Assembly: GCA_964433755.1 (NCBI GenBank)
Contig: CAYSSR010000002.1
Location: 278,351-342,350, forward strand
DNA from: an uncultured Anaerolineales bacterium
Lineage (GTDB): Bacteria; Chloroflexota; Anaerolineae; UBA7937; B3-Chlor
Direction of reading: 5' to 3'
Length of the DNA: 64,000 nucleotides
The position numbers and the translations under genes were made by a program. Below, piece by piece: positions 29,171 through 43,322 of the stretch. Positions within the stretch are counted from its first letter, which is position 1, and each line of letters starts with the position of its first letter. The notes below the pieces were generated by a model, which ran no database searches, was not told where the DNA came from, and saw only the letters and a program-made list of their open reading frames with translations.

Positions 29171-30346
29171 TCAGCCCTCATACAGAGGTGACATGGCCCG
29201 TAGTCGTTCTATGATGCCAGGGAGGACCTTCAACACCCGGTCCACGTCCTCTTCGGTGTTCTCGTGCCCCAGAGTCAGACGGACGGTGCCTCGCGCCATA
29301 CCTGGCTCCACTCCCATCGCCAACAGCACGTGGGACGGATCGGAGGAGCCAGTCGCGCACGCGGAGCCGCTGGAAGCTGCAATACCCTCCATGTCCAGTC
29401 CTAGCAGTATGCCCTCGCCCTCTACGTGCTCGAAAGCGATGTTGACGTTATTGGGCAGACGATTCTCAGGGTGGCCCATCAAGGCACAGTGGTCCACCTC
29501 GGAAAGCACGCCCTCTATCAGACGGTCTCGAAGCCCCGCCAGCCGCCGCGTTTCTTCGCACCTCCACCCCTCAACCAGCTTCAATGCGGTCGCCAGTCCC
29601 ACAATCTCGGCCACGTTCTCCGTGCCTGAGCGGCGGCCGCTCTCGTGCCCGCCGCCCGTCTGGCACGGCAGCAGGTCCACACCCTCTCGCACGTACAACA
29701 CCCCCACCCCTTTCGGCGCGTAGAACTTGTGGCCCGAGAGGCTGAGGAGGTCAACGTTCAACTCGTCTACATCCAGGCTCAGAGAGCCCGCGGCTTGTAC
29801 CGCATCCGTGTGGAAAGGGATACCGTGGCTACGAGCGATCCTTCCTATCTCAGAGATCGGCTCGACCGTGCCCATCTCGTTGTTCGCGTACATAACACTG
29901 ATCAGAATGGTGGTATCGGTGATCGCCCGCTCCACGTCCGCCGGATCTACCTGTCCATACTGATCCACGGGCAGATAGGTGACCTCAAAGCCGAACTGTC
30001 TCTCCATTTGCTCCAGTGTGTGGCTCACGGCGTGGTGCTCGATGGATGAAGTAATGATGTGATCGCCCCGGCGCCGGTTCTGCCACGCCACACCTCTGAG
30101 GGCCAGATTGTCGCTTTCCGTCCCACAACTGGTGAAGACTATCTCTCGAGGGCTACAGCAAAGCATCCCGGCCACGTCCGCGCGTGCCTGCTCCAACGCC
30201 TGGTGTGCCTCCCGCCCCAGACTGTGCAGGCTGGAGGCGTTGCCATAGCGCTCACCGAAGTAGGGAAGCATGGCCTCCACCACTTGGGGGTGCACAGACG
30301 TCGTCGCGGCGTGGTCGAGATACAGCACTCTCCTCTCATCCATCAT
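29171..30346 (-). CDS. nifS: Cysteine desulfurase NifS/IscS
   Basis: Aminotransferase class V with the SGHK PLP-Lys and the SSGSACAT catalytic Cys loop. Confidence 0.9.
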   Translation of the reverse strand: MMDERRVLYLDHAATTSVHPQVVEAMLPYFGERYGNASSLHSLGREAHQALEQARADVAGMLCCSPREIVFTSCGTESDNLALRGVAWQNRRRGDHIITSSIEHHAVSHTLEQMERQFGFEVTYLPVDQYGQVDPADVERAITDTTILISVMYANNEMGTVEPISEIGRIARSHGIPFHTDAVQAAGSLSLDVDELNVDLLSLSGHKFYAPKGVGVLYVREGVDLLPCQTGGGHESGRRSGTENVAEIVGLATALKLVEGWRCEETRRLAGLRDRLIEGVLSEVDHCALMGHPENRLPNNVNIAFEHVEGEGILLGLDMEGIAASSGSACATGSSDPSHVLLAMGVEPGMARGTVRLTLGHENTEEDVDRVLKVLPGIIERLRAMSPLYEG

Positions 30347-30396
30347 CGTTCCGCTTCTCCCAGGCTACGAGCCTGCTCCACGAACCTGTGTCTGCC

Positions 30397-30825
30397 TCAC
30401 CTGCCTGTGGCGACAGGCTCTATCAAATCCTCTAGCGTGGTGGAATCGAGCACCTCGACGATCCCATCGTGCATCTTCCTCCACACATCCCTGGCCGCAC
30501 AGATGCCCTGCCGGCCGCACGATTCCTCGGTTCTCTCGTGAGGAATACACTTCAGGGGCATGATGTACCCCTCTTCCAGCGCCCTCACCACGTCACCGAC
30601 CGTGATCTGGCGCGGGGCGCGACAAAGCTCGTAGCCGCCACGCGCGCCCCGAGTGCTCTCCACCAGGTTCGCTTCCTTCAGCAACGGGATGATCTGTTCC
30701 AGATAGCCCAAGGAGACGCCCTGGGCCTCAGCCACGTCGCCCAGCGACATGGGGCCCTGGCCGTGGCGCCTGCCAAGCTCGATCATCGCTCTGAGACCGT
30801 ACTGTTCTCTGGCAGATAGCTTCAT
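30397..30825 (-). CDS. iscR: Rrf2 family transcriptional regulator (IscR-like, with C-terminal Cys cluster)
   Basis: MKLSAREQYGLRAMIELG helix-turn-helix, with C-terminal cysteines for [Fe-S] binding. Confidence 0.8.
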   Translation of the reverse strand: MKLSAREQYGLRAMIELGRRHGQGPMSLGDVAEAQGVSLGYLEQIIPLLKEANLVESTRGARGGYELCRAPRQITVGDVVRALEEGYIMPLKCIPHERTEESCGRQGICAARDVWRKMHDGIVEVLDSTTLEDLIEPVATGR

Positions 30826-31049: not shown

Positions 31050-32357
31050 CTACCCTGTTACGAAGGGTACGAAGGTCCTAAGATCCAGACCACCAGTGGT
31101 AAGGACGAATCGGGCGGTCACCGTTTTGTCGGAGTCCACGATGACACTTATCGACTCGCTGTCGCCAGCTACGTCACCATCCCATCCAGCGAACTCGTAG
31201 CCGTCCACGGGTACCGCAGTAAGCATCACCTCGGTGCCCGACTCACACCCGTCCACCACGCAGGCCAGGGGCTCGGAGAGGATGGCGCCGCCACCTGTGG
31301 GTGCTACGCTGGGGTAGAGGTGGTAGGAGGGCAAAGGTACCTCGACGATGGGAACGTAGGCGTAGTCGTCGATCCCACACTCACCGTACGCTATCTTGAA
31401 CCAACCGTTCTCGCCCCAACCTCTGCCCCAGCTATTCTTCGCGATCCAGTAGCCCTCCTCATCGTCGTAACCAACCACGGTGACAGCGTGGCCACCTTCC
31501 AGCGTGCCTGTGGTGTGCCGGTAGACGCCTCCCTCGTAAGTCCAGAAATCCGAGTAGACCAGCATGGTCGCCTCGAAAGGTCCACTATCAGCCAGTGCCT
31601 GCTTCATATCGTCCGAGTTGGTCAGCCCGACCCACTCAGTGAGGCGTGTGACCCGATTCTGCCAGTCGGGACACAACCTGCACGTCTGATCAGACGTGTC
31701 GTAGGGGTAGCATGGCTCCTCAGTGATGCCTACGTCACGAGCGGCATTCAGCGCTGCAAAGGGGGTCCAGCCGGTAGCGCAGCTACTGCCTGAGTTACAG
31801 AAGAACAGGTGCGCCTCCGAAAGGTCGGGGTTGAGAGCGGGACTGCCCAATGCAATCTCCAGACGGGACTCGATGGCCCCGACGGTGGCGAAGGCCACGC
31901 AGGATCCGCAGGCACTCTGGTTCCGGATGCCAGTCGTCCAGTTTTCACCATCCACGTCCCGCCAATCGAGCCTGGCCGGATAGCCGTAGCTGGCAGAGAG
32001 CTTCACGCCAGCCTCGCTGGCCTGCTCCTTCTCCCACTCCGTCACCTCCATCGGCACACCCAGCAGCCCAACCAGGTCTTCAGGACCCGATTCCAGCAGC
32101 GGGGGCTCGGTGGAGGGCAAAGAGTCTTCGTCGCCGAGTGAGATGGTCTGGGTGACGGTGGTGCCGACAGTATCCGTCGGGGTAGACGAGGCGAAGAGGG
32201 TAGTGGTAATGGTTTCCGGTTGCCAGAGCGTATCCTCGGGGCACCCGGTCGGCTCAGGCGACTCCGTCTGCGCCATAGCAGGAACCTGCAAGACCACACT
32301 GACGCCTGTAGCCAGCAGAACCGCCACGACTAGAACTAGAGTTGACTTGATTCTCAC
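31050..32357 (-). CDS. Secreted papain-family (C1A) cysteine protease with C-terminal InlB-B-repeat-like domain
   Basis: Signal peptide. Catalytic Cys in CGSCVAF, and His/Asn in GGHAV...NSWG. The C-terminal repeat is GYEFAGWDGD. Confidence 0.85.
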   Translation of the reverse strand: MRIKSTLVLVVAVLLATGVSVVLQVPAMAQTESPEPTGCPEDTLWQPETITTTLFASSTPTDTVGTTVTQTISLGDEDSLPSTEPPLLESGPEDLVGLLGVPMEVTEWEKEQASEAGVKLSASYGYPARLDWRDVDGENWTTGIRNQSACGSCVAFATVGAIESRLEIALGSPALNPDLSEAHLFFCNSGSSCATGWTPFAALNAARDVGITEEPCYPYDTSDQTCRLCPDWQNRVTRLTEWVGLTNSDDMKQALADSGPFEATMLVYSDFWTYEGGVYRHTTGTLEGGHAVTVVGYDDEEGYWIAKNSWGRGWGENGWFKIAYGECGIDDYAYVPIVEVPLPSYHLYPSVAPTGGGAILSEPLACVVDGCESGTEVMLTAVPVDGYEFAGWDGDVAGDSESISVIVDSDKTVTARFVLTTGGLDLRTFVPFVTG

Positions 32358-32391
32358 TTTCGCCCCACCCCCGTCGAGACAATGGTGGGGA

Positions 32392-32440
32392 CGAAAGAAA
32401 ACGCGCTCTCAACCACGGTGCCAAAGGGAAAAAGAGCGCG
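32392..32440 (-). terminator. Intrinsic terminator/attenuator in the leader between riboswitch A and the protease gene (CGCGCUCU...AGAGCGCG + UUUUCUUUCG)
   Basis: A perfect 8-bp stem with a 23-nt loop and a U tract on the minus strand. Confidence 0.5.
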
Positions 32441-32454
32441 CTGAATAGCTAGCT

Positions 32455-32550
32455 TTTCTTCGGAGGCAACCCGGCCACCATAGTTCGCTCAGAACCGTAG
32501 GCCCGTGGCTTTGCGTCCCCACCTTTCGATGGGTTTGCCTTTATCACCGA
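32455..32550 (-). promoter_or_regulatory. c-di-GMP-I (GEMM-I) riboswitch aptamer A, in the leader of the C1 protease gene
   Basis: Minus-strand RNA reads GGUGAUAAAGGCAAACCCAUCGAAAGGUGGGGACGCAAAGCCACGGGCCUACGG...GGCCGGGUUGCCUCCGAAG. It matches the GEMM-I core (GGCAAACC, GAAA-capped P2, GGGACGCAAAGCC, a long P3, and P1 closure). Confidence 0.8.
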
Positions 32551-32618
32551 CTTACTGTTAAGGTCTTGCCTGTGAACTGATCCGCGTCAGCACCCCGTAA
32601 AGGACGCCGACTGGTATC

Positions 32619-33896
32619 TCACGCTTGAGCTCTCGTCGTCAACGGCACGTGGCTCTGCTGCAGCGATCCACTGGTCACGGAGAGGATCACCTGCACATCG
32701 ACAGACATGCCCCCGGCGTCTACGGTTATCGTCCCTGCGTGAATCCCTTCAGCGGTCGGGAAGCCCTCCAAGTAGACCACCACGGTCGATTGGCCGGATC
32801 CGGCAGCCTGGCTCAGCTTGATCCAGTCTTGATCGGCGCTGGCAGTCCAGTTGGCCCAGGTGTCGATGTGCACCCCGTTCCCGGCCGGCACCGTGGGCGC
32901 AGAACCCTGCATAGAGAGAAACACCAACGAATCGGGCGACACCCTCAAAGGCAGATCGAGGTAGATGCTGTCGCGGCTCTCGAGCACGGTCGAGCCCCGC
33001 CTGATCTGAGCAAGCACCGTAGCGGGTGATCCATCGCCGGTGGACAACGTCCATGCCTTGTCAGAGGAGAAGGGTTCCCAGGCCGACCAAGTCTCGCCTG
33101 CGTTGCGGAACCTCATCTCCGTCGCCCAGTCCTGGCCATACACGTACAGGTCAACGGAGAGGCTGGCCGTTGACCACGCCTCTCCGTCGACCACCACAGG
33201 GTAGAAGGCATTTCCTTGTACGCCGTTCCGAGCCCCAAGATCAAGGGTCCAGTAGTGGTAGTAATACGCGCTGCCAGAGAAGGCATAGCCCCCTCCCGCC
33301 TCGCGGAAATCCACACTCAGCATGTTGTCCCTGTGACCGGGGCTATTCATCCAGGCATCGACCACCGCCCCAGACGACGTGTACCCCGCTGCGACGTTCT
33401 CGCCAAGATACGTATGGTTCAGGTACCCTGCATTCTCGATCCTGGTGACCCAGTCTGGTTCGCCAGAGCACGTGTGGGCGAAGCAGTCGTGGTTGGCCAT
33501 CCAGTCGCTGTGAAACTGCGCAGAGTCCATCAACTCTGAGGCCGCCTTCAGGGGCGGCAGCCCCCGACTCAGCCGTCTCACGTTTGTGAGACGGACCAGT
33601 GCGTGCCCCTGAGGCTCGTCGGGCGCCCCTGCACCCGCACTGACACTGACCAAACCTTCGTCCGAGTCACTGAGAGTGGATTCCGTGATGGAAGTGGTTC
33701 CGTCGGCGCCAATGAACCCGATGGCAACCGGGTTCCCGTCTCCATCGGCGCCTCCCACCGTGGCCAAGCTGGCCGACGCCAGCAAGAGCAGCAGGAGCGT
33801 ACAGGCAACAATACGATTCCTGGAGACTTCTCTACCTATCCGCAACATCCCGTTACTCGATAACATCTTGCGTTCGCTACGCTGTGCCAATCCCAT
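32619..33896 (-). CDS. Secreted CAP/SCP (YkwD-like) domain protein with C-terminal Ig-like/beta-sandwich domains
   Basis: Signal peptide (the true start is probably an internal ATG, MLRIG...). The SPGHRDNMLSVDFREAGGGYA motif is CAP-type. Confidence 0.75.
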   Translation of the reverse strand: MGLAQRSERKMLSSNGMLRIGREVSRNRIVACTLLLLLLASASLATVGGADGDGNPVAIGFIGADGTTSITESTLSDSDEGLVSVSAGAGAPDEPQGHALVRLTNVRRLSRGLPPLKAASELMDSAQFHSDWMANHDCFAHTCSGEPDWVTRIENAGYLNHTYLGENVAAGYTSSGAVVDAWMNSPGHRDNMLSVDFREAGGGYAFSGSAYYYHYWTLDLGARNGVQGNAFYPVVVDGEAWSTASLSVDLYVYGQDWATEMRFRNAGETWSAWEPFSSDKAWTLSTGDGSPATVLAQIRRGSTVLESRDSIYLDLPLRVSPDSLVFLSMQGSAPTVPAGNGVHIDTWANWTASADQDWIKLSQAAGSGQSTVVVYLEGFPTAEGIHAGTITVDAGGMSVDVQVILSVTSGSLQQSHVPLTTRAQA

Positions 33897-33906
33897 TAAC
33901 TAAGAA

Positions 33907-33942
33907 GCGCCCTTCGCCACATGCCGTTGGTTCGAAGAGCGC
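33907..33942 (-). terminator. Hairpin (GCGCUCUUCG/CGAAGGGCGC) in the leader between riboswitch B and the CAP-protein gene. Candidate attenuator.
   Basis: 10-bp stem with one G-U pair, followed by a weak U tract that overlaps the annotated start region. Confidence 0.35.
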
Positions 33943-33959
33943 TGCGTCTATGCTAGTTG

Positions 33960-34055
33960 TCCTTCGGAGGCAACCCGGCGACCGTAGTTCGACTGAACCG
34001 TAGGCCCGTGGCTTTGCGTCCCCACCTTTCGATGGGTTTGCCTTTGTCACCGCTC
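33960..34055 (-). promoter_or_regulatory. c-di-GMP-I (GEMM-I) riboswitch aptamer B, in the leader of the CAP-protein gene
   Basis: ~93% identical to aptamer A over ~90 nt, with the same GEMM-I core. Confidence 0.8.
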
Positions 34056-34088
34056 GATTGTCAAGGTAAGACCCTCAATGCCATTCCA

Positions 34089-34117
34089 AGTATACAGCAA
34101 GCAGCGCAGACAATCAA
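34089..34117 (-). promoter_or_regulatory. Sigma70-type promoter (minus) TTGATT-17-TATACT driving riboswitch B
   Basis: Reverse complement reads ccaTTGATTgtctgcgctgcttgctgTATACTtgg. Confidence 0.5.
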
Positions 34118-34240
34118 TGGTAAGATGGTACCATACCCAGCAACAACGAGCGGGGGGCTAGGCCGTCCTCTGGAACTTTGGCCTTATGCGAAGCCGCCGT
34201 CAGGGCGCTCTTGTCCAAAGCATGGACGTGCCTATGCGCC

Positions 34241-34269
34241 TTGACACCACCCGGACGGTTGTCTATAAT
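34241..34269 (+). promoter_or_regulatory. Consensus sigma70 promoter TTGACA-17-TATAAT driving riboswitch C and the PEP-CTERM operon
   Basis: The sequence ccTTGACAccacccggacggttgtcTATAATtc is a perfect consensus. Confidence 0.7.
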
Positions 34270-34299
34270 TCGTGATGCCTCTACATCGACTGATCAACG

Positions 34300-34395
34300 C
34301 AGGGTAACGAAAAGGCAACCTTCCTGCGAGGGAAGGAACGCAAAGCCTCGGATCTAGGCTGAACGCGCTCTGACGCCCAGATAGCCGAGCTGCCG
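34300..34395 (+). promoter_or_regulatory. GEMM-I-class (c-di-GMP-I or related cyclic dinucleotide) riboswitch aptamer C
   Basis: AAAAGGCAACC-UUCCUGCGAGGGAAGG (GNRA-capped P2)-AACGCAAAGCC-long P3-GCUGCC. It deviates from consensus at GCAA(A)CC and GGAACGC, so the call is less certain than A and B. Confidence 0.55.
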
Positions 34396-34425
34396 AACTA
34401 CTCAGGCGGCTCGGCGTTTTTTGTT
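34384..34425 (+). terminator. Intrinsic terminator (GCCGAGCUGCC...GGCGGCUCGGC + GUUUUUUGUU) forming the expression platform of riboswitch C
   Basis: 11-bp stem plus a U tract. The 5' arm is shared with the aptamer P3/P1 3' side, which implies a ligand-dependent antitermination (ON) switch. Confidence 0.7.
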
Positions 34426-34549
34426 GCCAAGGACTTTAAAACGCTTTTAAGGCCCGCTTAATGGCTGTTTAAGCTCCGCATGGTAGAGTCGGTAGTTGGT
34501 GACGTCGGCGTTCGGCCCGTGAGTCGACTCGCAGGGAGGAGATAGGAGT

Positions 34550-36130
34550 ATGCTTACTGGAAATGGTCGCATCTCATCGTGGGCGCGCGGCGTCAGTGTT
34601 GTCACTGTCGCCCTTCTTATGCTGATCGCACCCGGGTTGGCGCAGGCTCAGGGACCCGGGGCATGGGAGGAATACTCCGGCAACCCCATCATCGATCCCC
34701 CGGAAGAGGACGCCTACTACCCCAGCGTGCTCTACGACTCTTCCCCGACACCCTTTAGTGGCCACGGGGAAGCAAGCGCCTTCAAGATGTGGCACGACAA
34801 CGGTCTCCAGTACAGAGTCTCCGACGACGGTCTGTCGTGGACCAAAGTAGGAGACATGGATGACGGCACCATCACCGGCCTGCCCGCTGGAGAGGTGCGC
34901 CATCCTCTCGTGGAGTACTACGCGGCTGGGTTCACTGGCAGGAACGATGGCGACAACCCCAGCTCCGCTACCATGTACTATCGTCTCTGGTTCTGGCACC
35001 TGGGCCAGGACCTGTACAGTGTAGCTGCCATCCACTACGCCGAGTCGCCCGATGGAAAGGCCTGGTACAACGTGCAGCCGCTCCAGAACGGCACAGTGCC
35101 CATCGTCACGGGCACCTGGCCTGACTGGAATAGAGGATCGTACGGACCTTGCGATGTCCTCTTCTTTCCGGGAGCCAGCAACTCCGGAACTGACTGGACC
35201 TTCTGGATGTACTATGACGGCACCACCGGCGGAGACGAAGCCATAGGTCTCGGCTTCTCGGCCGATGGCGTGACCTGGACCGGGTACGATCCCGGCGGAG
35301 ACGGCCAGGCTGATGCCGTGATGAACGGCACCTACGTCTCCGGAGACTGGGACTACAACTACCTATCGCGCGCCACCATCTGGAGAGAGGCACCCGGCGA
35401 CTACCGCATGTGGTACAGCGCCGGCGTCGACACCATGAACCATGGCCTCGGATACGCCACCTCCTCCGACGGACTGAGCTGGACACGAGACCCCAACAAC
35501 CCCATCTTCTACAAGGACGATACCGGCTATCCTGGGTATCCCTGGCGCGAGAACCGTAGCTACACCCCCGTGGTGTTGCGTGCCGGGAACCTCTGGTTCA
35601 TGTGGTATTCCGGCGAGAACGGCGGGGGCAAGTGCATCGGTGTAGCCTATTCCAGCGCAGGACTTCCGGAGCAACTCCTGGAGATCGAGAAGAGCGCCCA
35701 TCCAGCGCAGATCGCTGTGGGTGAGAAGACTCTGTTCACCATCACCGTGACCAACGCCTCGATGGACGCCGCCGATGACGTAGTGGTCACGGACGAGATC
35801 GACGCGGGCCTGGAGATCGTGAACGTCCAGACCTCGAAGGGATTGATCTCCACGGCTGGGCAACAAGTGACGGTGGACGTGGGGTCCATGGCCCCAGATG
35901 AGACCGTGGTGATCGAGATTCGGGTGCTGGCGCTGGAGATCGGACAAATCGAGAACGTAGCGGTCGTGACCACGCCGCGAGTCGTCGCCGACGCTGGAGC
36001 GACGCTCGACGTGGTCAGCGCAGCAGCCGTGGAAGAGGAGTTCGTGCCCGAGCCGGGAAGCCTGCTTCTGATGGGCAGCGGCCTGCTCACCATGGCTGGA
36101 TACGCCATCAAGCGAGGTCGAAGACACTAG
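34550..36130 (+). CDS. Secreted BNR/Asp-box beta-propeller (glycoside-hydrolase-like) + DUF11 domain protein with PEP-CTERM sorting signal
   Basis: Signal peptide. Repeated SDDGLSWT / SADGVTWT / SSDGLSWT Asp-boxes and a DUF11 region (TITVTNASMDAADDVVVTDEID). The C-terminus VPEPGSLLLMGSGLLTMAGYAIKRGRRH is PEP-CTERM. Confidence 0.8.
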   Translation: MLTGNGRISSWARGVSVVTVALLMLIAPGLAQAQGPGAWEEYSGNPIIDPPEEDAYYPSVLYDSSPTPFSGHGEASAFKMWHDNGLQYRVSDDGLSWTKVGDMDDGTITGLPAGEVRHPLVEYYAAGFTGRNDGDNPSSATMYYRLWFWHLGQDLYSVAAIHYAESPDGKAWYNVQPLQNGTVPIVTGTWPDWNRGSYGPCDVLFFPGASNSGTDWTFWMYYDGTTGGDEAIGLGFSADGVTWTGYDPGGDGQADAVMNGTYVSGDWDYNYLSRATIWREAPGDYRMWYSAGVDTMNHGLGYATSSDGLSWTRDPNNPIFYKDDTGYPGYPWRENRSYTPVVLRAGNLWFMWYSGENGGGKCIGVAYSSAGLPEQLLEIEKSAHPAQIAVGEKTLFTITVTNASMDAADDVVVTDEIDAGLEIVNVQTSKGLISTAGQQVTVDVGSMAPDETVVIEIRVLALEIGQIENVAVVTTPRVVADAGATLDVVSAAAVEEEFVPEPGSLLLMGSGLLTMAGYAIKRGRRH

Positions 36131-36184: not shown

Positions 36185-37756
36185 GTGAGTCGAGGCCATT
36201 TCACACTGATTGCTGTGTTGCTCCCCACACTTCTGCTCGGGCTGGCCGCGTCGGGCGCCGCCTTCGCCGACGGTACGACGCATTACGTGAGTCCCGGACA
36301 AGACATCCAGGGGATCATCGACACCGCCAGTCCAGGGGACACTATCCAGTTCGCCCCAGGCACCTACACGCTGGCCTCGACCCTCTGCGTGAGCAAACCG
36401 CTTACTCTCACCTCTGCCGACCCCTACGCAGAAGTCAAACCCCTTCTCGACGGTGGAGGGAGTCTGGAGACCATCGTCTACGTGAACTCGGACAGCGTGG
36501 TCATCGATGGGCTGGAGATCGCCAATGGCACCGGCGATCTCGTCCTCCAGAGCGGGGCGTACGCAGAAACCGTGGTCCGGAACAACACTGTCCACGATTC
36601 GACCGGAGACGAGGGCATCCAGTTGAAGCAGTGCACGGATTGCGTTGTCGAATTCAACCTCATCTACGACGTCGCTCAGGATGGCATCTGCATAGCGGAC
36701 GCCTCGCACGACTGCCTGATCAGCAACAACGAGATCTACAACTCGTACAGCGAGAACGCCGTCATCTACGTCTACGATTCATACAACATCACTGTGGAAA
36801 GCAACTACATCCACGATACGCAGGGAGCCAACGGCATCACGTTCTACAAGAACTACGGCGCCACCCACACCATCACCAACAACCTCATCGTCAGCAACGA
36901 GTGGCGGGGTGGCAAGCACTGCTACGACGAAGCCGACGGAAATGCGGTGAGCATCTACAAGCCCCGGACGTCCAGCACCTACGTGGTCACTCACAATACC
37001 ATCGATGACAACACGCCGGCCAACGGTTGCGCCCAGCCGGGAAACGCCATCTACGTCAACGATGGCTCCGGGGTGGGCTTCAGCACCGACGTGCAGAGCA
37101 ACATCGTGACCAATCACAGCGGCTACGGCATCCGCACCTACTGTGAGGCTCTGGTGGGCTATGGCTGCAACGACCTGTGGCAGAATGCTCTCGGCGCCAC
37201 GGACGGCAACCCCGTAGATGCCGGCGGCAACATCTCCGCTGATCCCCTCTTCGATACCGACCACTCCTTGCTGGAAGGAAGCCCCGCCATCGACATGGCC
37301 TGCGACGGGAAAGACATGGGGGTCGACTTCTCGTTGTGGGGATACGAGCCCGCACTCCAGATCACGAAGGCCGTGAATCCGCTCTCGGTGGAAGAGGGAG
37401 CGGGGGCGACGTTCACCATCACTGTAACGAACGACGGCCCTGGGGCGGCACAGGACGTGGTGCTCACCGACGAGATAGACGCAGACCTTCAGATCTCCTC
37501 CGTGGAGACTACTCAGGGCACCCCACTCCAGGTAGGCCAGACGATCACTGTCGATATCGGGATGCTCGAGCGTAACGAAACCGTGACCGTCACCATCGCC
37601 GTGACAGCAACCGAGATGGGCACCCAGGTCAACGTCGCCCATCTGCGCTCCCTCACAGTCGAGGGGATGGATTCCAACAGTGTGCCGCTGGAGGTAGGGC
37701 CGCCCGCCCAACCACCACCCAACTTCTACTTTCCGCTCGTGCTCTGTGCTTTCTGA
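36185..37756 (+). CDS. Secreted right-handed parallel beta-helix (pectate-lyase-fold, PbH1 repeats) + DUF11 domain protein
   Basis: Signal peptide. Repeated NNT/NNE...I.N/D beta-helix rungs and a DUF11 region (TFTITVTNDGPGAAQDVVLTDEID). It has a hydrophobic C-terminus but no PEP motif. Confidence 0.7.
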   Translation: MSRGHFTLIAVLLPTLLLGLAASGAAFADGTTHYVSPGQDIQGIIDTASPGDTIQFAPGTYTLASTLCVSKPLTLTSADPYAEVKPLLDGGGSLETIVYVNSDSVVIDGLEIANGTGDLVLQSGAYAETVVRNNTVHDSTGDEGIQLKQCTDCVVEFNLIYDVAQDGICIADASHDCLISNNEIYNSYSENAVIYVYDSYNITVESNYIHDTQGANGITFYKNYGATHTITNNLIVSNEWRGGKHCYDEADGNAVSIYKPRTSSTYVVTHNTIDDNTPANGCAQPGNAIYVNDGSGVGFSTDVQSNIVTNHSGYGIRTYCEALVGYGCNDLWQNALGATDGNPVDAGGNISADPLFDTDHSLLEGSPAIDMACDGKDMGVDFSLWGYEPALQITKAVNPLSVEEGAGATFTITVTNDGPGAAQDVVLTDEIDADLQISSVETTQGTPLQVGQTITVDIGMLERNETVTVTIAVTATEMGTQVNVAHLRSLTVEGMDSNSVPLEVGPPAQPPPNFYFPLVLCAF

Positions 37757-37873
37757 GGGCTACTCTCGCGGCCCCTCAGACCATGACTTGCCTCTTCGGC
37801 AAGCCAGAATAGGAAATGGTGGTGACTCAATAGTTGAAGGCGACGACTCGAGACATCGGGAGGAGGAAAGACA

Positions 37874-39451
37874 ATGAAGCATAGACAGGGTAGGGTCTCA
37901 CTGCGCACAGCGGGTGCTTGTATGGCGATCGTCATCTCCCTTCTGCTGCTCGTTCCAGGGCTGGCGCAGGCCCAGGGACCCGGCACCTGGGAAGAGTACT
38001 CGGGCAACCCCATCATCGGTCCCACCACCGACGCCGACGGTTTGTATCCCTCCATACTCTACGATCCGTCCCCGACCCCCTTCGGTGGTCACGGGGAAGC
38101 GAGCCACTTCAAGATGTGGCACAACATGAATCTCCAGTATCGAACCTCAGACGATGGCATCTCGTGGACCAAAGTAGGCGATATGCTGGACGGCACCATC
38201 ACAGGCTTGCCAGCAGGCCACGTGAGTCACCCGTTGGTGGAGTACTATGCAGACGGGTTCCCGGGTCGCAACGATGGCACCAATCCCAGCGCAAGCACGA
38301 TGTACTACCGGCTGTGGTTCTGGCACACCAGCTACCTCTACACCGTTATGTCTACCCACTACGCCGAATCAGCCGATGGCAAGGCCTGGTACAACCTGCA
38401 GCCCCTTCAGAATGGCGCTGTGCCCATCGTCACGGGGGTGTATGGCGATTGGAACCGAGGGTCGTACGGACCTTGCGACGTGCTCTATGACCCTGGTGCC
38501 AGCAACAGCGGCACCGACTGGACCTTCCGGCTGTACTACGATGGCACTACGGGCGGTGACGAAGCTGTAGGACTTGGCTTCTCGGCAGACGGAGTCACCT
38601 GGACCGGCTACGATCCCGACAATGATGGAGACGCCGATGACGTCATGAACGGCACCTACGTGGCCGGGGACTGGGACTACAACTACGTATCGCGCGCGAC
38701 CGTCTGGAGAGAGGGTCCAGGGGACTACCGCATGTGGTACAGCGCCGGCCCCGGGGAGATGCGCCAGGGCATAGGCTACGCCACGTCTCCCGACGGGTTG
38801 ACCTGGACCCGCGACCCCGGCAACCCCATCTTCCACAAGACCGATACCGGATATCCTGGCTATCCCTGGCGACAGAACTGGTCTTACACGCCCATGGTCT
38901 TGCGCGCCGAGAACCTCTGGCTGATGTGGTACTCTGGTGAGGGCGGAGAAGGGCAGTGCCTGGGTCTCGCCTACGCCAGCGCGGGACTGCCGATCACACT
39001 GATAGAGATCGAGAAGAGCGCCCACCCGCCCGAGGTGAGCGTGGGGGAGGAAGCCCTGTTCAACATCACCGTGACTAACGCCTCGCTGGACATCGTTGAT
39101 GACGTGATGGTCAAAGACAAGATCGACGCCAGCCTGGAGATATTGGACGTTCAGACCACCAAGGGATCGATCTCCACAACCGGGCAATTGGTGACGGTGA
39201 ACATAGGGGCCATGGACCCAGACGAGAGCGTGGAGATAACCATTCGAGTGCTGGCTACAGAACCAGGGACGATCGAGAACGTGGCCACCGTGGTCGCTCC
39301 GCGCGTCGAAGATACCGCCGAAGCCGTTCTCACCGTGATTCCCGCTGTCGCCGAGGAGTATGTGCCCGAGGCTGGGTCGCTGCTGCTGCTGGCCAGCGGA
39401 CTCGCCAGCATGGTCGGATTCGCCCGCGGCCGCCGCGGAAGGGCCAGATAA
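37874..39451 (+). CDS. Paralog of 34550..36130: BNR-propeller + DUF11 protein with PEP-CTERM-like signal (VPEAGSLLLLASGLASMVGFARGRRGRAR)
   Basis: ~65-70% identical to the first copy, with the same domain order. Confidence 0.8.
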   Translation: MKHRQGRVSLRTAGACMAIVISLLLLVPGLAQAQGPGTWEEYSGNPIIGPTTDADGLYPSILYDPSPTPFGGHGEASHFKMWHNMNLQYRTSDDGISWTKVGDMLDGTITGLPAGHVSHPLVEYYADGFPGRNDGTNPSASTMYYRLWFWHTSYLYTVMSTHYAESADGKAWYNLQPLQNGAVPIVTGVYGDWNRGSYGPCDVLYDPGASNSGTDWTFRLYYDGTTGGDEAVGLGFSADGVTWTGYDPDNDGDADDVMNGTYVAGDWDYNYVSRATVWREGPGDYRMWYSAGPGEMRQGIGYATSPDGLTWTRDPGNPIFHKTDTGYPGYPWRQNWSYTPMVLRAENLWLMWYSGEGGEGQCLGLAYASAGLPITLIEIEKSAHPPEVSVGEEALFNITVTNASLDIVDDVMVKDKIDASLEILDVQTTKGSISTTGQLVTVNIGAMDPDESVEITIRVLATEPGTIENVATVVAPRVEDTAEAVLTVIPAVAEEYVPEAGSLLLLASGLASMVGFARGRRGRAR

Positions 39452-39470: not shown

Positions 39471-40229
39471 CTAGTCGACTTCGAGCGCGGACAGGAGCTG
39501 CCCTTTCAAGGATGCGAACGCACCCGAGGTGATCATGTCTCGCTGCCGCGGGCGCGCCAGTGGAATGCTGAGCTCCAGCTTGATCCTTCCGGGCCGAGGA
39601 CTCATGACGTAGACGCGGTCGGCGAGGTAGATGGCCTCGTCTACGTCGTGGGTCACGAAGATGATCGTTTGCCCAAACTGGCTCCACACCTCGAGCAACC
39701 ACTGCTGTAGCTGCCGCCTGGTTAGGGCATCCAGGGCACCGAAGGGTTCGTCCAGCAGCATCACGTCCCTCCGGCAGAGGAACGTCCGCAACAGAGCAGC
39801 CCTTTGCCTCATACCTCCTGACAACGTTGCCGGGTAACTCCCCTCGAACCCTTCCAGGCCGAAGAGAGGAAGCAGGCCCACAGCTTCCTGCCGCGCCTCC
39901 TTCCTGCTCGCGCCGCTGATCTCGGGACCGAGGATCACGTTGTCCAGGACCTTCCGCCAGGGGAGCAGCAAGTCCTTCTGTAGCATGTAGCCCACCAGAC
40001 CGGTGCGATCCACGACCGGCTGGCCGTCCAGGAGCACCTCTCCCCGGTCAGGTTGCACCAGGCCGCAGATGATGTTCAGCAGCGTGCTCTTTCCGCAGCC
40101 GCTCGGCCCGATGAGGACCACGAACTCCCCGTCTTTGGCAGAGAGACTGACCCCGTCCAGCGTGGTGACCAGCCTGCCATCCACGTGGTAGTCCTTGAAG
40201 ACCTGCCGTACCTCGACCTCGCTGACCAT
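39471..40229 (-). CDS. ABC transporter ATP-binding protein (NitT/TauT family)
   Basis: GPSGCGKST Walker A and LSGGMRQR signature. Confidence 0.9.
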   Translation of the reverse strand: MVSEVEVRQVFKDYHVDGRLVTTLDGVSLSAKDGEFVVLIGPSGCGKSTLLNIICGLVQPDRGEVLLDGQPVVDRTGLVGYMLQKDLLLPWRKVLDNVILGPEISGASRKEARQEAVGLLPLFGLEGFEGSYPATLSGGMRQRAALLRTFLCRRDVMLLDEPFGALDALTRRQLQQWLLEVWSQFGQTIIFVTHDVDEAIYLADRVYVMSPRPGRIKLELSIPLARPRQRDMITSGAFASLKGQLLSALEVD

Positions 40230-40230
40230 G

Positions 40231-41226
40231 CTACGGCAAGAACTCGTTGGTAAAGGCAGCCCCGGCGTCGATGTGGCTGGGCAGCAGTTCTCTATCGGCC
40301 ATCCAATCGGCGTAGCCCTTCCAGATCTCCAGCTTCTGCTCTCCCCACCTGGCGGCGTCCTCCTGGTAGTGAGCGCTCAGCCACTCCTGGCTACGCTCGA
40401 CCAGTTCCGCGTTGCTCTCGGGCGCATACTCCAGGAGGATCTGAGCCGCCTCGGACGGGTTGGATATGGCGAACTCGTACCCCCGGGAGGTGGCCGCCAT
40501 GAAGCCGCGCACTAGCTCCGGGTCCTCGGCGATGTTCTCCTCGCTGGTGATGATCACCGGCGTGTAGTAGTCGGGTACACAGTCAGCCCAGTCGCTCAAC
40601 ATCACGATATCGACGGGGCTCCCTCGCAACTCCGCCTCCATCCCCGTCCAGCCATAGAAGATCCACGCGAAGTCCACGTCCCGCTCGACGACGGTGAAGT
40701 AGTCGGCCCAACCGATATCGATGAACTCCACCTCGTTCACATCGCCGCCGTCACAGGTCATCAGCACGTCCAGCACAGCCCGCTCGATGGGAGAACCCCA
40801 ACTGCCATATCGTTTCCCTTCGAAATCCTTGGGCCGCTCGATGCCCCGATCCTGCGGGCTGGCAAACCCAGACGTGTTGTGCTGGATGACAGCCGCCACT
40901 GACACGATGGGGATTTCCTCAGCCCGAGCATAGGACACCTCTTCCTGATAGCTGATGCCGAAATCTGCCTGCCCCGCCGCCACCACCTGAACGAGGGTGC
41001 TGCCCTCCGCTGGCTCGATGATCTCCACGGCCAGTCCTTCGTCGCTGTACCAACCCTTGTCCAGCGCCACGTAGAGACCAGTATGATTGGTGTTGGGGAA
41101 CCAGTCCAACATCACCACCACCGGCTCAGGGGGCTCCGTGGCCACGGGCTGGGCGCCCTGGCAGCCGATCACCGTCACCAACAGAACAGCCAGGAATACG
41201 ACTCGTCTCCACTTGCAGGCCAACAT
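40231..41226 (-). CDS. ABC transporter substrate-binding lipoprotein, NMT1/THI5-like (thiamine-precursor binding)
   Basis: Start reset to MLACKWRR (lipobox VIGC). The 220-aa N-terminal extension in the ORF track overlaps the permease gene and was rejected. Confidence 0.75.
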   Translation of the reverse strand: MLACKWRRVVFLAVLLVTVIGCQGAQPVATEPPEPVVVMLDWFPNTNHTGLYVALDKGWYSDEGLAVEIIEPAEGSTLVQVVAAGQADFGISYQEEVSYARAEEIPIVSVAAVIQHNTSGFASPQDRGIERPKDFEGKRYGSWGSPIERAVLDVLMTCDGGDVNEVEFIDIGWADYFTVVERDVDFAWIFYGWTGMEAELRGSPVDIVMLSDWADCVPDYYTPVIITSEENIAEDPELVRGFMAATSRGYEFAISNPSEAAQILLEYAPESNAELVERSQEWLSAHYQEDAARWGEQKLEIWKGYADWMADRELLPSHIDAGAAFTNEFLP

Positions 41227-41285
41227 CGTCTTTCTCCTTTGGTCGATACGGTGCCCTGACCTTTGAGGGTCACGCCACCGCCGAC

Positions 41286-42152
41286 TCATGCCTCCTCCCA
41301 GACTTCCTCCCGCTGCGCGTAGTACCACGGTAGCACCGAGCGCTCCAGCAACATCACTACGGCAAACATGAGAATGCTCAGCAACGACGTCACGGCGATG
41401 GCGGCGAACACTCGATCTGTCAAGAAGTTCTTGGACGACCGGATCATGAAGATGCCCAGGCCTCGGCTCGCCCCCACCCATTCGCCGATGACAGCACCGA
41501 CCACACTGTACGTGATGGCGATCTTGAGACCAGAGAAGAACGAGGGAAGCGCTCCGGGCACCCGCACCTTGAGGAATATCTGACGTCTGTTCGCCCCCAT
41601 GGCCCTGAGCAGAGCGATCAGATCCGGGTCGGCCACCCTCAGTCCATCTGCGGTGCTGACGGCGATAGGGAAAAAGCAGACCAGGGCCACCACGATGACC
41701 TTGGGCAAGATTCCATATCCGAACCAGATGATGAGCAGAGGAGCAAGGGCCAGCACCGGCACAGTCTGGGAGGTCACCAACAATGGGTAGACCGTCCGGC
41801 GCAGCAGGCTCGACGAGTCGACCACCACGGCCAGGCAGAGGCCGACCATCAGAGCAAGGCCCAGCCCCAGCCACGTCTCCTTGAGAGTCTGCCACGTATG
41901 CGGACCCAGCAACTCACGCGCTTCATAGCCAGCCCTGACGATCTGTGTAGGGGACGGCAACAGCCACTTCGGGATCTGCATCAGCGAGGTGCCGAGCTGC
42001 CAGGCAAACAACAGCAGCAGAATGAGTATCAGCGGCGGCGCGTACAACCGAACCAGGCGGAGTGCTCCTACCAGTCGCGCTGGCCCCCCACGGGTATCAA
42101 GCGAAGAATCCCGACTCGGACCGGACTTCCGTCGAGCTCCCTCAGACTTCAT
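41286..42152 (-). CDS. ABC transporter permease (NitT/TauT family)
   Basis: Six predicted TM helices and an EAA-like loop. Confidence 0.85.
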   Translation of the reverse strand: MKSEGARRKSGPSRDSSLDTRGGPARLVGALRLVRLYAPPLILILLLLFAWQLGTSLMQIPKWLLPSPTQIVRAGYEARELLGPHTWQTLKETWLGLGLALMVGLCLAVVVDSSSLLRRTVYPLLVTSQTVPVLALAPLLIIWFGYGILPKVIVVALVCFFPIAVSTADGLRVADPDLIALLRAMGANRRQIFLKVRVPGALPSFFSGLKIAITYSVVGAVIGEWVGASRGLGIFMIRSSKNFLTDRVFAAIAVTSLLSILMFAVVMLLERSVLPWYYAQREEVWEEA

Positions 42153-43158: not shown

Positions 43159-43177
43159 GAAACAAGCTCTTCAGCAA

Positions 43178-43280
43178 CCTTCCCTACGCTGGCATTACCC
43201 ATGTCAGGTTCGTGGGGTCGAGGGCATTGCGGGCCCTCCTCTCAGCCTGGCTCACCAAGCTCCCCTGGGTGCTTCCATTC
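43178..43280 (-). promoter_or_regulatory. TPP (thiamine pyrophosphate) riboswitch
   Basis: Minus-strand RNA reads ...GGGGAGC...GCUGAGAGG...ACCCCACGAACCUGACAUGGGUAAUGCCAGCGUAGGGAAGG. It matches the conserved TPP aptamer blocks. Confidence 0.85.
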
Positions 43281-43293
43281 AATTGTCAGGACT

Positions 43294-43322
43294 AGTATAG
43301 CACAAGCCCCTTTACTTGTCAA
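43294..43322 (-). promoter_or_regulatory. Sigma70-type promoter (minus) TTGACA-17-TATACT (TGC extended -10) driving the TPP riboswitch and thiamine operon
   Basis: Reverse complement reads cTTGACAAGTaaaggggcTTGTGCTATACTagt. Confidence 0.65.

Follow-up and report, generated by a model that had tools for sequence, protein, structure and literature searches.

In a 64,000-nucleotide stretch of DNA from an uncultured Anaerolineales bacterium of the phylum Chloroflexota (assembly GCA_964433755.1, contig CAYSSR010000002.1, positions 278,351 to 342,350; hereafter the window), two divergent sigma-70-type promoters are likely each to feed a canonical cyclic di-GMP (c-di-GMP) class I riboswitch, and the one on the plus strand, riboswitch C, is likely to be a transcriptional ON switch for c-di-GMP. 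Riboswitch C lies upstream of three genes with DUF11 and PEP-CTERM features, riboswitch B on the minus strand lies upstream of a gene for a secreted CAP-domain protein, and a third riboswitch, A, follows on the same strand before a protease gene (Table 1). The ON design itself is a known one, here in a new lineage, the uncultured Anaerolineae, to which its experimentally characterised logic would thus be extended.

The preliminary description of this locus had proposed a pair of promoters firing outward, and both, P_B and P_C, are present and are conserved in relatives with a fixed 17-bp spacer. A consensus scan for sigma-70-like sites across positions 31500-35500 returned these two and no others (mean of 0.7 in shuffled sequence), with 123 bp between their -35 hexamers. 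Transcription is predicted to start at about 34082 from P_B and at about 34275-34277 from P_C, and in both cases the aptamer begins approximately 30 nt further downstream. P_B keeps both hexamers and its ungapped 17-bp spacer in eight loci, the letters of the spacer being variable, and P_C is kept in six, with TATAAT as the -10 in three of them and TACAAT, TATAGT or TTGCCA/TGTAAT in the others, always at a spacing of 17 bp. Hexamers, spacing, conservation and a transcribed element downstream are thus found together for both predicted promoters, as is expected of the sigma-70 type. The 64-kb window contains five sites of the form TTGACA-N17-TATAAT with at most one mismatch, where 0.01 would be expected, and one of these (43294-43322, minus strand) lies immediately 5' of a thiamine pyrophosphate (TPP) riboswitch. 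Because this type of promoter recurs in the window and one copy heads a TPP riboswitch, the organism appears to use such promoters.

Scanning the window with the covariance models of Rfam gave three matches to RF01051 (c-di-GMP-I, GEMM-I) above the gathering threshold of 35 bits, namely A, B and C, and the scores of B (82.9 bits) and C (52.0 bits) bear out the earlier recognition of these two elements as riboswitches. Homologues were collected by protein-anchored look-ups of relatives of gene 1, the first gene downstream of C, followed by Rfam scans; these relatives occur in metagenome-assembled genomes of Anaerolineae/Chloroflexota, while the sole record of the identical gene 1 protein is a short contig from an SRA assembly. 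The whole C module was present at six distinct loci: the window, L002 (equal to L127 in the aligned region), L003, L136 (equal to L138), L139 and L140-L142. It is always found in cis and in sense orientation, with the same gene approximately 150 nt further downstream, and the homologous aptamers score 41.5-59.6 bits against RF01051. The two-hairpin architecture of the class is kept, with a GNRA-capped P1b and a helix P2 that retains its AG bulge, and across the homologues 92% of 138 cells are paired. The P1b loops read GCGA, GAGA or GAAA, so that the GNRA identity is preserved while the closing pair changes.

The ligand-binding bases were located by numbering aptamer C after Vc2 of Vibrio cholerae. 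In Vc2 the G21-C22/G45-C46 helix is flanked by G20, just before G21, and by A47, just after C46; the lower 3' strand of helix P2 has the bulged G83 ahead of it and C92 behind it. The equivalents of G20, C44, A47, G83 and C92 do not vary across the six homologues, and neighbouring positions do. G20, A47 and C92 contact the ligand in Vc2 (PMC6140456), and C44 and G83 form a pair between its two helices (PMC11705072); by sequence, aptamer C has both the ligand contacts and the inter-helix pair. The numbering agrees with the U60-A78 and A61-U77 pairs of Vc2 (PMC11705072), and a cross-check on A47 is given by the base after ACGC, which is A in aptamer C and G in the consensus of RF03167.

The ON-switch reading is carried by the intrinsic terminator that follows. 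Read directly from the sequence, it consists of GCCGAGCUGCC, a 10-nt loop, GGCGGCUCGGC and then GUUUUUUGUU. The whole 5' arm of its 11-bp stem is shared with the aptamer (an overlap of 11 nt) and comprises the G83 equivalent, the seven-base 3' strand of helix P2 and the equivalents of G91, C92 and C93. The terminator had been described correctly before, save that its 5' arm was placed one base off, at 34385-95 instead of 34384-34394; a consensus terminator scan missed the hairpin because the scan limited loops to 3-8 nt. The hairpin energy is -23 to -28 kcal/mol (-23 to -24.7 depending on the choice of flanking bases). In the minimum free energy (MFE) fold of the full leader, all 11 terminator pairs form in each of the six homologues, and the terminator fold is better than the aptamer-enforced fold by 10-17 kcal/mol, while RNA that ends before the 3' arm adopts the aptamer fold in five of the six. 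Across the homologues, none of the 66 cells of the stem is unpaired; the A-U pair at 34388/34411 is replaced by G-C in L139, a compensatory change, and by G-U in L141, and a U.G pair becomes U-A among the homologues. A C.A mismatch weakens helix P2 of the aptamer, and its A is Watson-Crick paired in the terminator. The RNA of positions 34300-34425 folds better than 200 of 200 shuffles (z = -2.9). By the overlap, the MFE folds and the U-tract, terminator and aptamer are mutually exclusive in the manner of the known ON switch Bc2, and the earlier proposal that ligand binding should prevent termination holds: as a prediction, the ON-switch reading of C has good support from its anatomy and from conservation.

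The sequence of events would be as follows. Nascent RNA from the strong promoter P_C is predicted by folding to form aptamer C. If no ligand is present, the newly made 3' arm GGCGGCUCGGC would invade the lower part of helix P2 and capture GCCGAGCUGCC, including the G83, C92 and C93 equivalents, and the 11-bp hairpin with its U-tract would, on thermodynamic grounds, stop transcription at approximately 34420. If c-di-GMP is bound, the GCCGAGCUGCC strand would be locked in the aptamer and the polymerase could read through into the presumed three-gene DUF11/PEP-CTERM operon, adding to the output of a second, probably regulator-dependent promoter that conservation suggests past the terminator.

Several observations weigh against this account. 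The 52 bits of C lie well under the approximately 83 bits of A and B. The canonical tetraloop receptor of helix P2 (the A61/A62 platform, CCUAAG...UAUGG type) was not found in C, where the region reads UCUAGG...CCCAGA, with G in place of A62 and, just before it, a base that differs between homologues. The C.A mismatch in lower P2 is present in four of the six homologues, and the apical loop of P2 is longer and variable. The missing receptor, the mismatch and the long variable loop explain the lower score, and may also lower the affinity of C. Since GEMM-I members without a tetraloop receptor exist, its absence is no bar to membership of C. Covariation in aptamer C amounts to one pair (a double change), and the terminator pairing score was reached by 174 of 500 shuffles and is not significant; because the homologues are only six and fairly close, covariation is weak, and the comparative evidence is consistent rather than compelling. 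Ligand binding and kinetics must overcome the energetic advantage of the terminator, and the case for the second promoter has just two elements, conservation and a -10-like box.

The same low score, mismatch and missing receptor would fit a decaying relic, in which aptamer C has lost ligand binding and the hairpin acts as a constitutive attenuator or terminator after P_C, and in the sister lineages L006, L147 and L148 aptamer C has indeed disappeared and aptamer B is decaying. We regard this as very improbable, since the bases for ligand and tertiary contacts are invariant in six homologues while the apical loop of P2 and the promoter spacer diverged freely, the GNRA identity survived the changes of its closing pair, and a strong promoter running into a constitutive terminator would be purposeless. 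No more can be granted to the idea that C senses another ligand than c-di-GMP, be it 3'3'-cyclic GMP-AMP (cGAMP, GEMM-Ib) or that of a GGC-type member. Two departures from the GEMM-I consensus, GCAACC and GGAACGC, had been taken as a possible sign of cGAMP specificity. They are present, but together they constitute an extra, lineage-specific C-G pair that extends P1b, a single event in which the third A of CAAA has given way to a C paired with an added G; in L141 both positions are back to the canonical unpaired A...C. The gap of some 30 bits to A and B, the unusual internal-loop bases, the lack of a canonical receptor and the rank of RF03167 (c-di-GMP-I-GGC) as the best clan member for C in E-value mode do point towards a variant. 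However, cGAMP riboswitches carry A in place of G20 (PMC6140456), and the corresponding base of C, 34314, is G in six of six homologues, with canonical A47 and C92, so that the GEMM-Ib reading is not supported. The RF03167 variant was rejected as well, for its score of 49.4 bits is below the threshold of 59, the diagnostic ACGCGAA reads ACGCAAA with no G47, and C92, C44 and G83 keep their canonical identity in every homologue. As every specificity-determining base is canonical, the ligand should be c-di-GMP and not cGAMP, and at the level of sequence the idea of a cGAMP specificity variant is refuted.

A further alternative concerns the block between the terminator and gene 1. Its four TTAA cores start at 34436, 34447, 34458 and 34469, in exact 11-bp phase and within cTTTAAg-like units, and are followed by TGgTAGAGT at 34481-34489, a TGnTAGnnT box that resembles an extended -10. 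Such a TTAA array occurs a single time in the window, where none is expected. Each of the 15 loci that span the block fully, among them L005, L006, L147 and L148, which have no riboswitch C, has it 5' of the orthologous gene, and in alignments positions 34436-34489 are better conserved than riboswitch C. This persistence in relatives without C suggests that the block is probably a second promoter and C probably one of two inputs; it would be a promoter without a -35, dependent on a factor at the phased sites and with a start near 34496. Since TTAA is palindromic, the sites can be read as direct repeats or as dyads. The RNA of the block is no more structured than shuffles and, if anything, less so (z = +1.4); we therefore reject an RNA-level role and prefer one at the level of DNA. 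A sigma-54 reading (GG-N10-GC) was also rejected because the spacing does not fit. If the promoter reading is right, riboswitch C would gate an extra strong promoter and would not be the sole control of the operon. The statement that C induces a PEP-CTERM operon thus needs narrowing: with the block lying between terminator and gene, sole control is doubtful, and the PEP-CTERM models pass gene 1 only. It could even be argued that the second promoter mainly drives the operon and that P_C mostly makes a terminated RNA of approximately 145 nt serving as a c-di-GMP sponge, as a trans-acting RNA or for interference with the second promoter. Conservation of the block extends to more relatives than that of riboswitch C, and the block suffices where C is absent; a perfect-consensus P_C with a very stable terminator would give abundant terminated RNA at low c-di-GMP. 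This remains unlikely in our view, because the exact overlap between terminator arm and ligand-binding strand is a hallmark of cis control, and because the module has the invariable cis placement described above, with no pointer to a trans target.

Riboswitch C as an ON switch contrasts with its minus-strand neighbours, in which the terminators are separate from the aptamers and do not overlap them. Aptamer B has a GAAA tetraloop and a receptor-like CCUACGG...CUACGG, and its orthologues score 83-90 bits. The hairpin of its expression platform (33943-33906) has no overlap with the aptamer and shows one compensatory AU/GC pair (RNAalifold, eight sequences), and a UUUU tail follows it in most relatives. 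As A lies between the CAP-domain gene and the papain-family protease gene, the minus-strand unit has two riboswitches in series, one per gene; the terminator downstream of aptamer B would control the secreted CAP-domain protein, and A would then control the papain-like protease. In both, a candidate antiterminator can be drawn between the 3' strand of P2 and the 5' arm and loop of the terminator (14 bp, -15 to -17 kcal/mol). With it, B and A would be OFF switches of the classical kind, and the GGC that never varies in the terminator loop would have an explanation. Against shuffled arms it has no energetic advantage (z between about -0.9 and +0.7 in B, mostly about -1 in A), no covariation was found in it across homologues, and a competing relay, hairpin X (GUUGCC/GGACAAC), is equally invariant. 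As to the polarity of B and A, OFF is favoured only slightly.

Should B and A work as OFF switches, the locus would be similar to the case of the protease ZmpI and its adhesin substrates, on which c-di-GMP has opposite effects (PMC6366702). We put forward with reserve, as rather doubtful, a two-sided toggle made of class I switches only, in which high c-di-GMP would open the PEP-CTERM operon through C and shut off the CAP protein and the protease through B and A, with C acting as an OR gate together with the second promoter. If true, it would be a Chloroflexota analogue of the ZmpI/adhesin circuit of Clostridioides difficile, and the receptor-less aptamer C could be tuned to another c-di-GMP threshold than A and B. 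In C. difficile, zmpI is repressed by c-di-GMP through a class I riboswitch, while the adhesins CD2831 and CD3246 are induced through class II riboswitches (PMC6366702). Both there and in the window, genes for a secreted protease and for surface proteins occupy neighbouring loci and each have their own c-di-GMP riboswitch. In the window, however, none of the three switches is of class II, all being class I, A and B may or may not be opposite to C in polarity, and no protease-substrate relation is known such as that in C. difficile, where the adhesins are substrates of ZmpI.

For riboswitch C itself the closest model is the c-di-GMP-I switch Bc2 of Bacillus thuringiensis BMB171, which precedes cap, the gene of a collagen adhesion protein. 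In experiments its default state was termination and c-di-GMP gave read-through, an ON switch described by a repression/de-repression model (PMC4933901). In both Bc2 and C an intrinsic terminator comes after a class I aptamer, termination is the default state (for C, the predicted one) and the gene behind the switch has a surface or adhesion product. They differ in phylum (Bacillota and Chloroflexota), and in C the 3' strand of P2 doubles as the 5' arm of the terminator, the canonical tetraloop receptor is missing, a second promoter-like block lies past the terminator and the cargo is of the DUF11/PEP-CTERM type. With Vc2 (PMC6140456, PMC11705072), C shares G20, A47, C92, the C44-G83 pair, the GNRA tetraloop of P1b and the two-hairpin layout. 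Unlike Vc2, it has a P1b longer by one C-G pair (the loop AAA/GAC becoming AA/AAC), a GCGA instead of a GAAA tetraloop, a G at the A62 equivalent that varies among homologues and a C.A mismatch in lower P2. The GEMM-Ib cGAMP switches of Geobacter (e.g., Gs1761) have the same fold as C, and differ from it in the defining A, for which C has G at the G20 position. Many of these Geobacter riboswitches are terminator-based ON switches.

The locus would tie c-di-GMP to exosortase-sorted (PEP-CTERM) DUF11 surface proteins, a direct link for which a full-text literature search found no paper. Within 2.5 kb it combines dual promoters with three switches of class I and expression platforms of two kinds, which makes it a compact natural example. 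The understanding of riboswitches is unchanged by it; its value lies in annotation and in inferring c-di-GMP-controlled surface functions in Chloroflexota.

Table 1. Features of the riboswitch locus in the window (+, plus strand; -, minus strand; promoters, hairpins and the conserved block are predictions).
Feature	Position	Strand	Description
Papain-family protease gene (after A)	31050-32357	-	PF00112 2.6e-49
A terminator	32440-32394	-	CGCGCUCU (32440-32433) / AGAGCGCG (32409-32402) + UUUUCUUU
Riboswitch A aptamer, c-di-GMP-I	32462-32549	-	RF01051 83.9 bits
CAP-domain protein gene (after B)	32619-33848	-	secreted CAP/YkwD-domain protein, BACON-like C-terminus; PF00188 1.4e-19
B expression-platform hairpin	33895-33943	-	AGCGCUCUUCG (33943-33933) pairs with CGAAGGGCGCU (33916-33906); weak U-rich tail
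Riboswitch B aptamer, c-di-GMP-I	33966-34052	-	RF01051 82.9 bits, E = 8e-15
Promoter P_B	34089-34117	-	-35 TTGATT (34117-34112), 17-bp spacer, -10 TATACT (34094-34089); 9/12 consensus match
Palindrome ATGGTACCAT	34125-34134		perfect, 10 bp; 7 bp upstream of the P_B -35
Promoter P_C	34241-34269	+	TTGACA-17-TATAAT; 12/12 consensus match
Riboswitch C aptamer, c-di-GMP-I	34304-34397	+	RF01051 52.0 bits
Aptamer C, parts		+	P1b 34319-34336; GCGA tetraloop 34326-34329; helix P2 34344-34391
Aptamer C, Vc2 equivalents		+	G20 = 34314 G; C44 = 34339 C; A47 = 34342 A; G83 = 34384 G; C92 = 34393 C
Intrinsic terminator of C	34384-34425	+	5' arm GCCGAGCUGCC 34384-34394; loop 34395-34404; 3' arm GGCGGCUCGGC 34405-34415; U-tract 34417-34425
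Conserved block, candidate promoter P2	34436-34489	+	four TTAA cores and extended -10-like box
Gene 1	34550-36130	+	secreted; N-terminal glycoside-hydrolase-like propeller, DUF11, PEP-CTERM tail
Gene 2	36185-37756	+	right-handed beta-helix and DUF11; without PEP-CTERM tail
Gene 3	37874-39451	+	gene 1 paralogue; PEP-CTERM-like tail VPEAGSLLLL...RGRRGRAR, not called by models

Gene 1 matches the DUF11 model PF01345 (1.7e-17) and passes both PEP-CTERM models, PF07589 with 22.9 bits (cutoff 20.7) and TIGR02595 with 18.9 bits (cutoff 16); it is the only gene of the presumed operon in which the sorting signal was called, and some of its homologues carry PF04041/PF22847. The spacer between genes 2 and 3 (37757-37873) contains the hairpins CUGAGGG...CCCUCAG and CUUGCC...GGCAAG, with no U-tract. 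On the minus strand, the start of the CAP gene at 33848 agrees with the gene calls in L136, L139 and L141. Among 19 neighbouring open reading frames scanned, no GGDEF/EAL cyclase or phosphodiesterase and no response regulator were found, and no exosortase was seen, though no search aimed at exosortases was made. Just beyond the protease gene (29171-30825, minus strand) lie genes for an Rrf2-family regulator and a NifS-type cysteine desulfurase, which look unrelated to the c-di-GMP locus.

The loci without the whole C module show how the region varies. The module is missing in L005, L006, L147 and L148; L004 begins inside the conserved block, and the region of the C module is not covered there. 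In L006 and L147 remnants of the terminator hairpin are left and aptamer C is gone, and aptamer B (689-775 in L006 and approximately 2080-2165 in L147, both minus strand) has lost the 5' strand of P1b, with 44.9 bits in L006 and a sub-threshold score in L147. These remnants of C and the degraded B suggest loss of riboswitches in that sister lineage, and in the L006/L147 clade the riboswitches appear to be decaying. Tandem complete c-di-GMP-I riboswitches before the protease gene were observed in L002 (3054-3497), L005 (1570-2019) and L147 (50-686), all on the minus strand, at a distance of approximately 360 nt in L002 and L005 and approximately 550 nt in L147. The tandem of L002 results from the absence of the CAP gene between B and A, and in L005 the A unit is duplicated. 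In a pattern scan of metagenomes for C-type aptamers (GGCAACC-N13-19-GGAMCGYAAAGC, with a hairpin filter), L038, L044, L051 and L127 could be recognised as real GEMM-I members among the matches listed, which otherwise looked like chance matches.

Two other structures at riboswitch C were considered and set aside. A P1a closing helix could be drawn as GGGUA/UACUC in the window, L002, L003 and L136, and as CGCAG/CUGCG, in another register, in L139 and L141, which leaves no single conserved pairing, and an apparent minus-strand terminator at 34336-34319 is the mirror image of the P1b hairpin of aptamer C.

Around riboswitch B, the palindrome ATGGTACCAT occurs once, which is not significant alone; L002, L003, L005, L006 and L147 have it too, identical or with one mismatch, and it may be where an activator or a repressor of P_B binds. 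A conserved pairing of 8 bp, several of them G.U, was predicted by RNAalifold between 34084-34077 and 33860-33853 (minus strand) and would join the 5' end of the B transcript (AUGGCAUU) to GAUGUUAU just 5' of the CAP start codon. Just 5' of aptamer B, CUUGACAAU (34066-34058, minus strand) is invariant in eight B leaders, with one change in L006, and three copies of GACAA lie around the aptamer. Elsewhere in the window, at 43163-43322 (minus strand), the TPP riboswitch (61.2 bits) lies directly 3' of a near-consensus TTGACA-17-TATACT and heads an ABC-transporter operon with an NMT1/THI5-like binding protein (40231-41895) and an ATPase (39471-40229).

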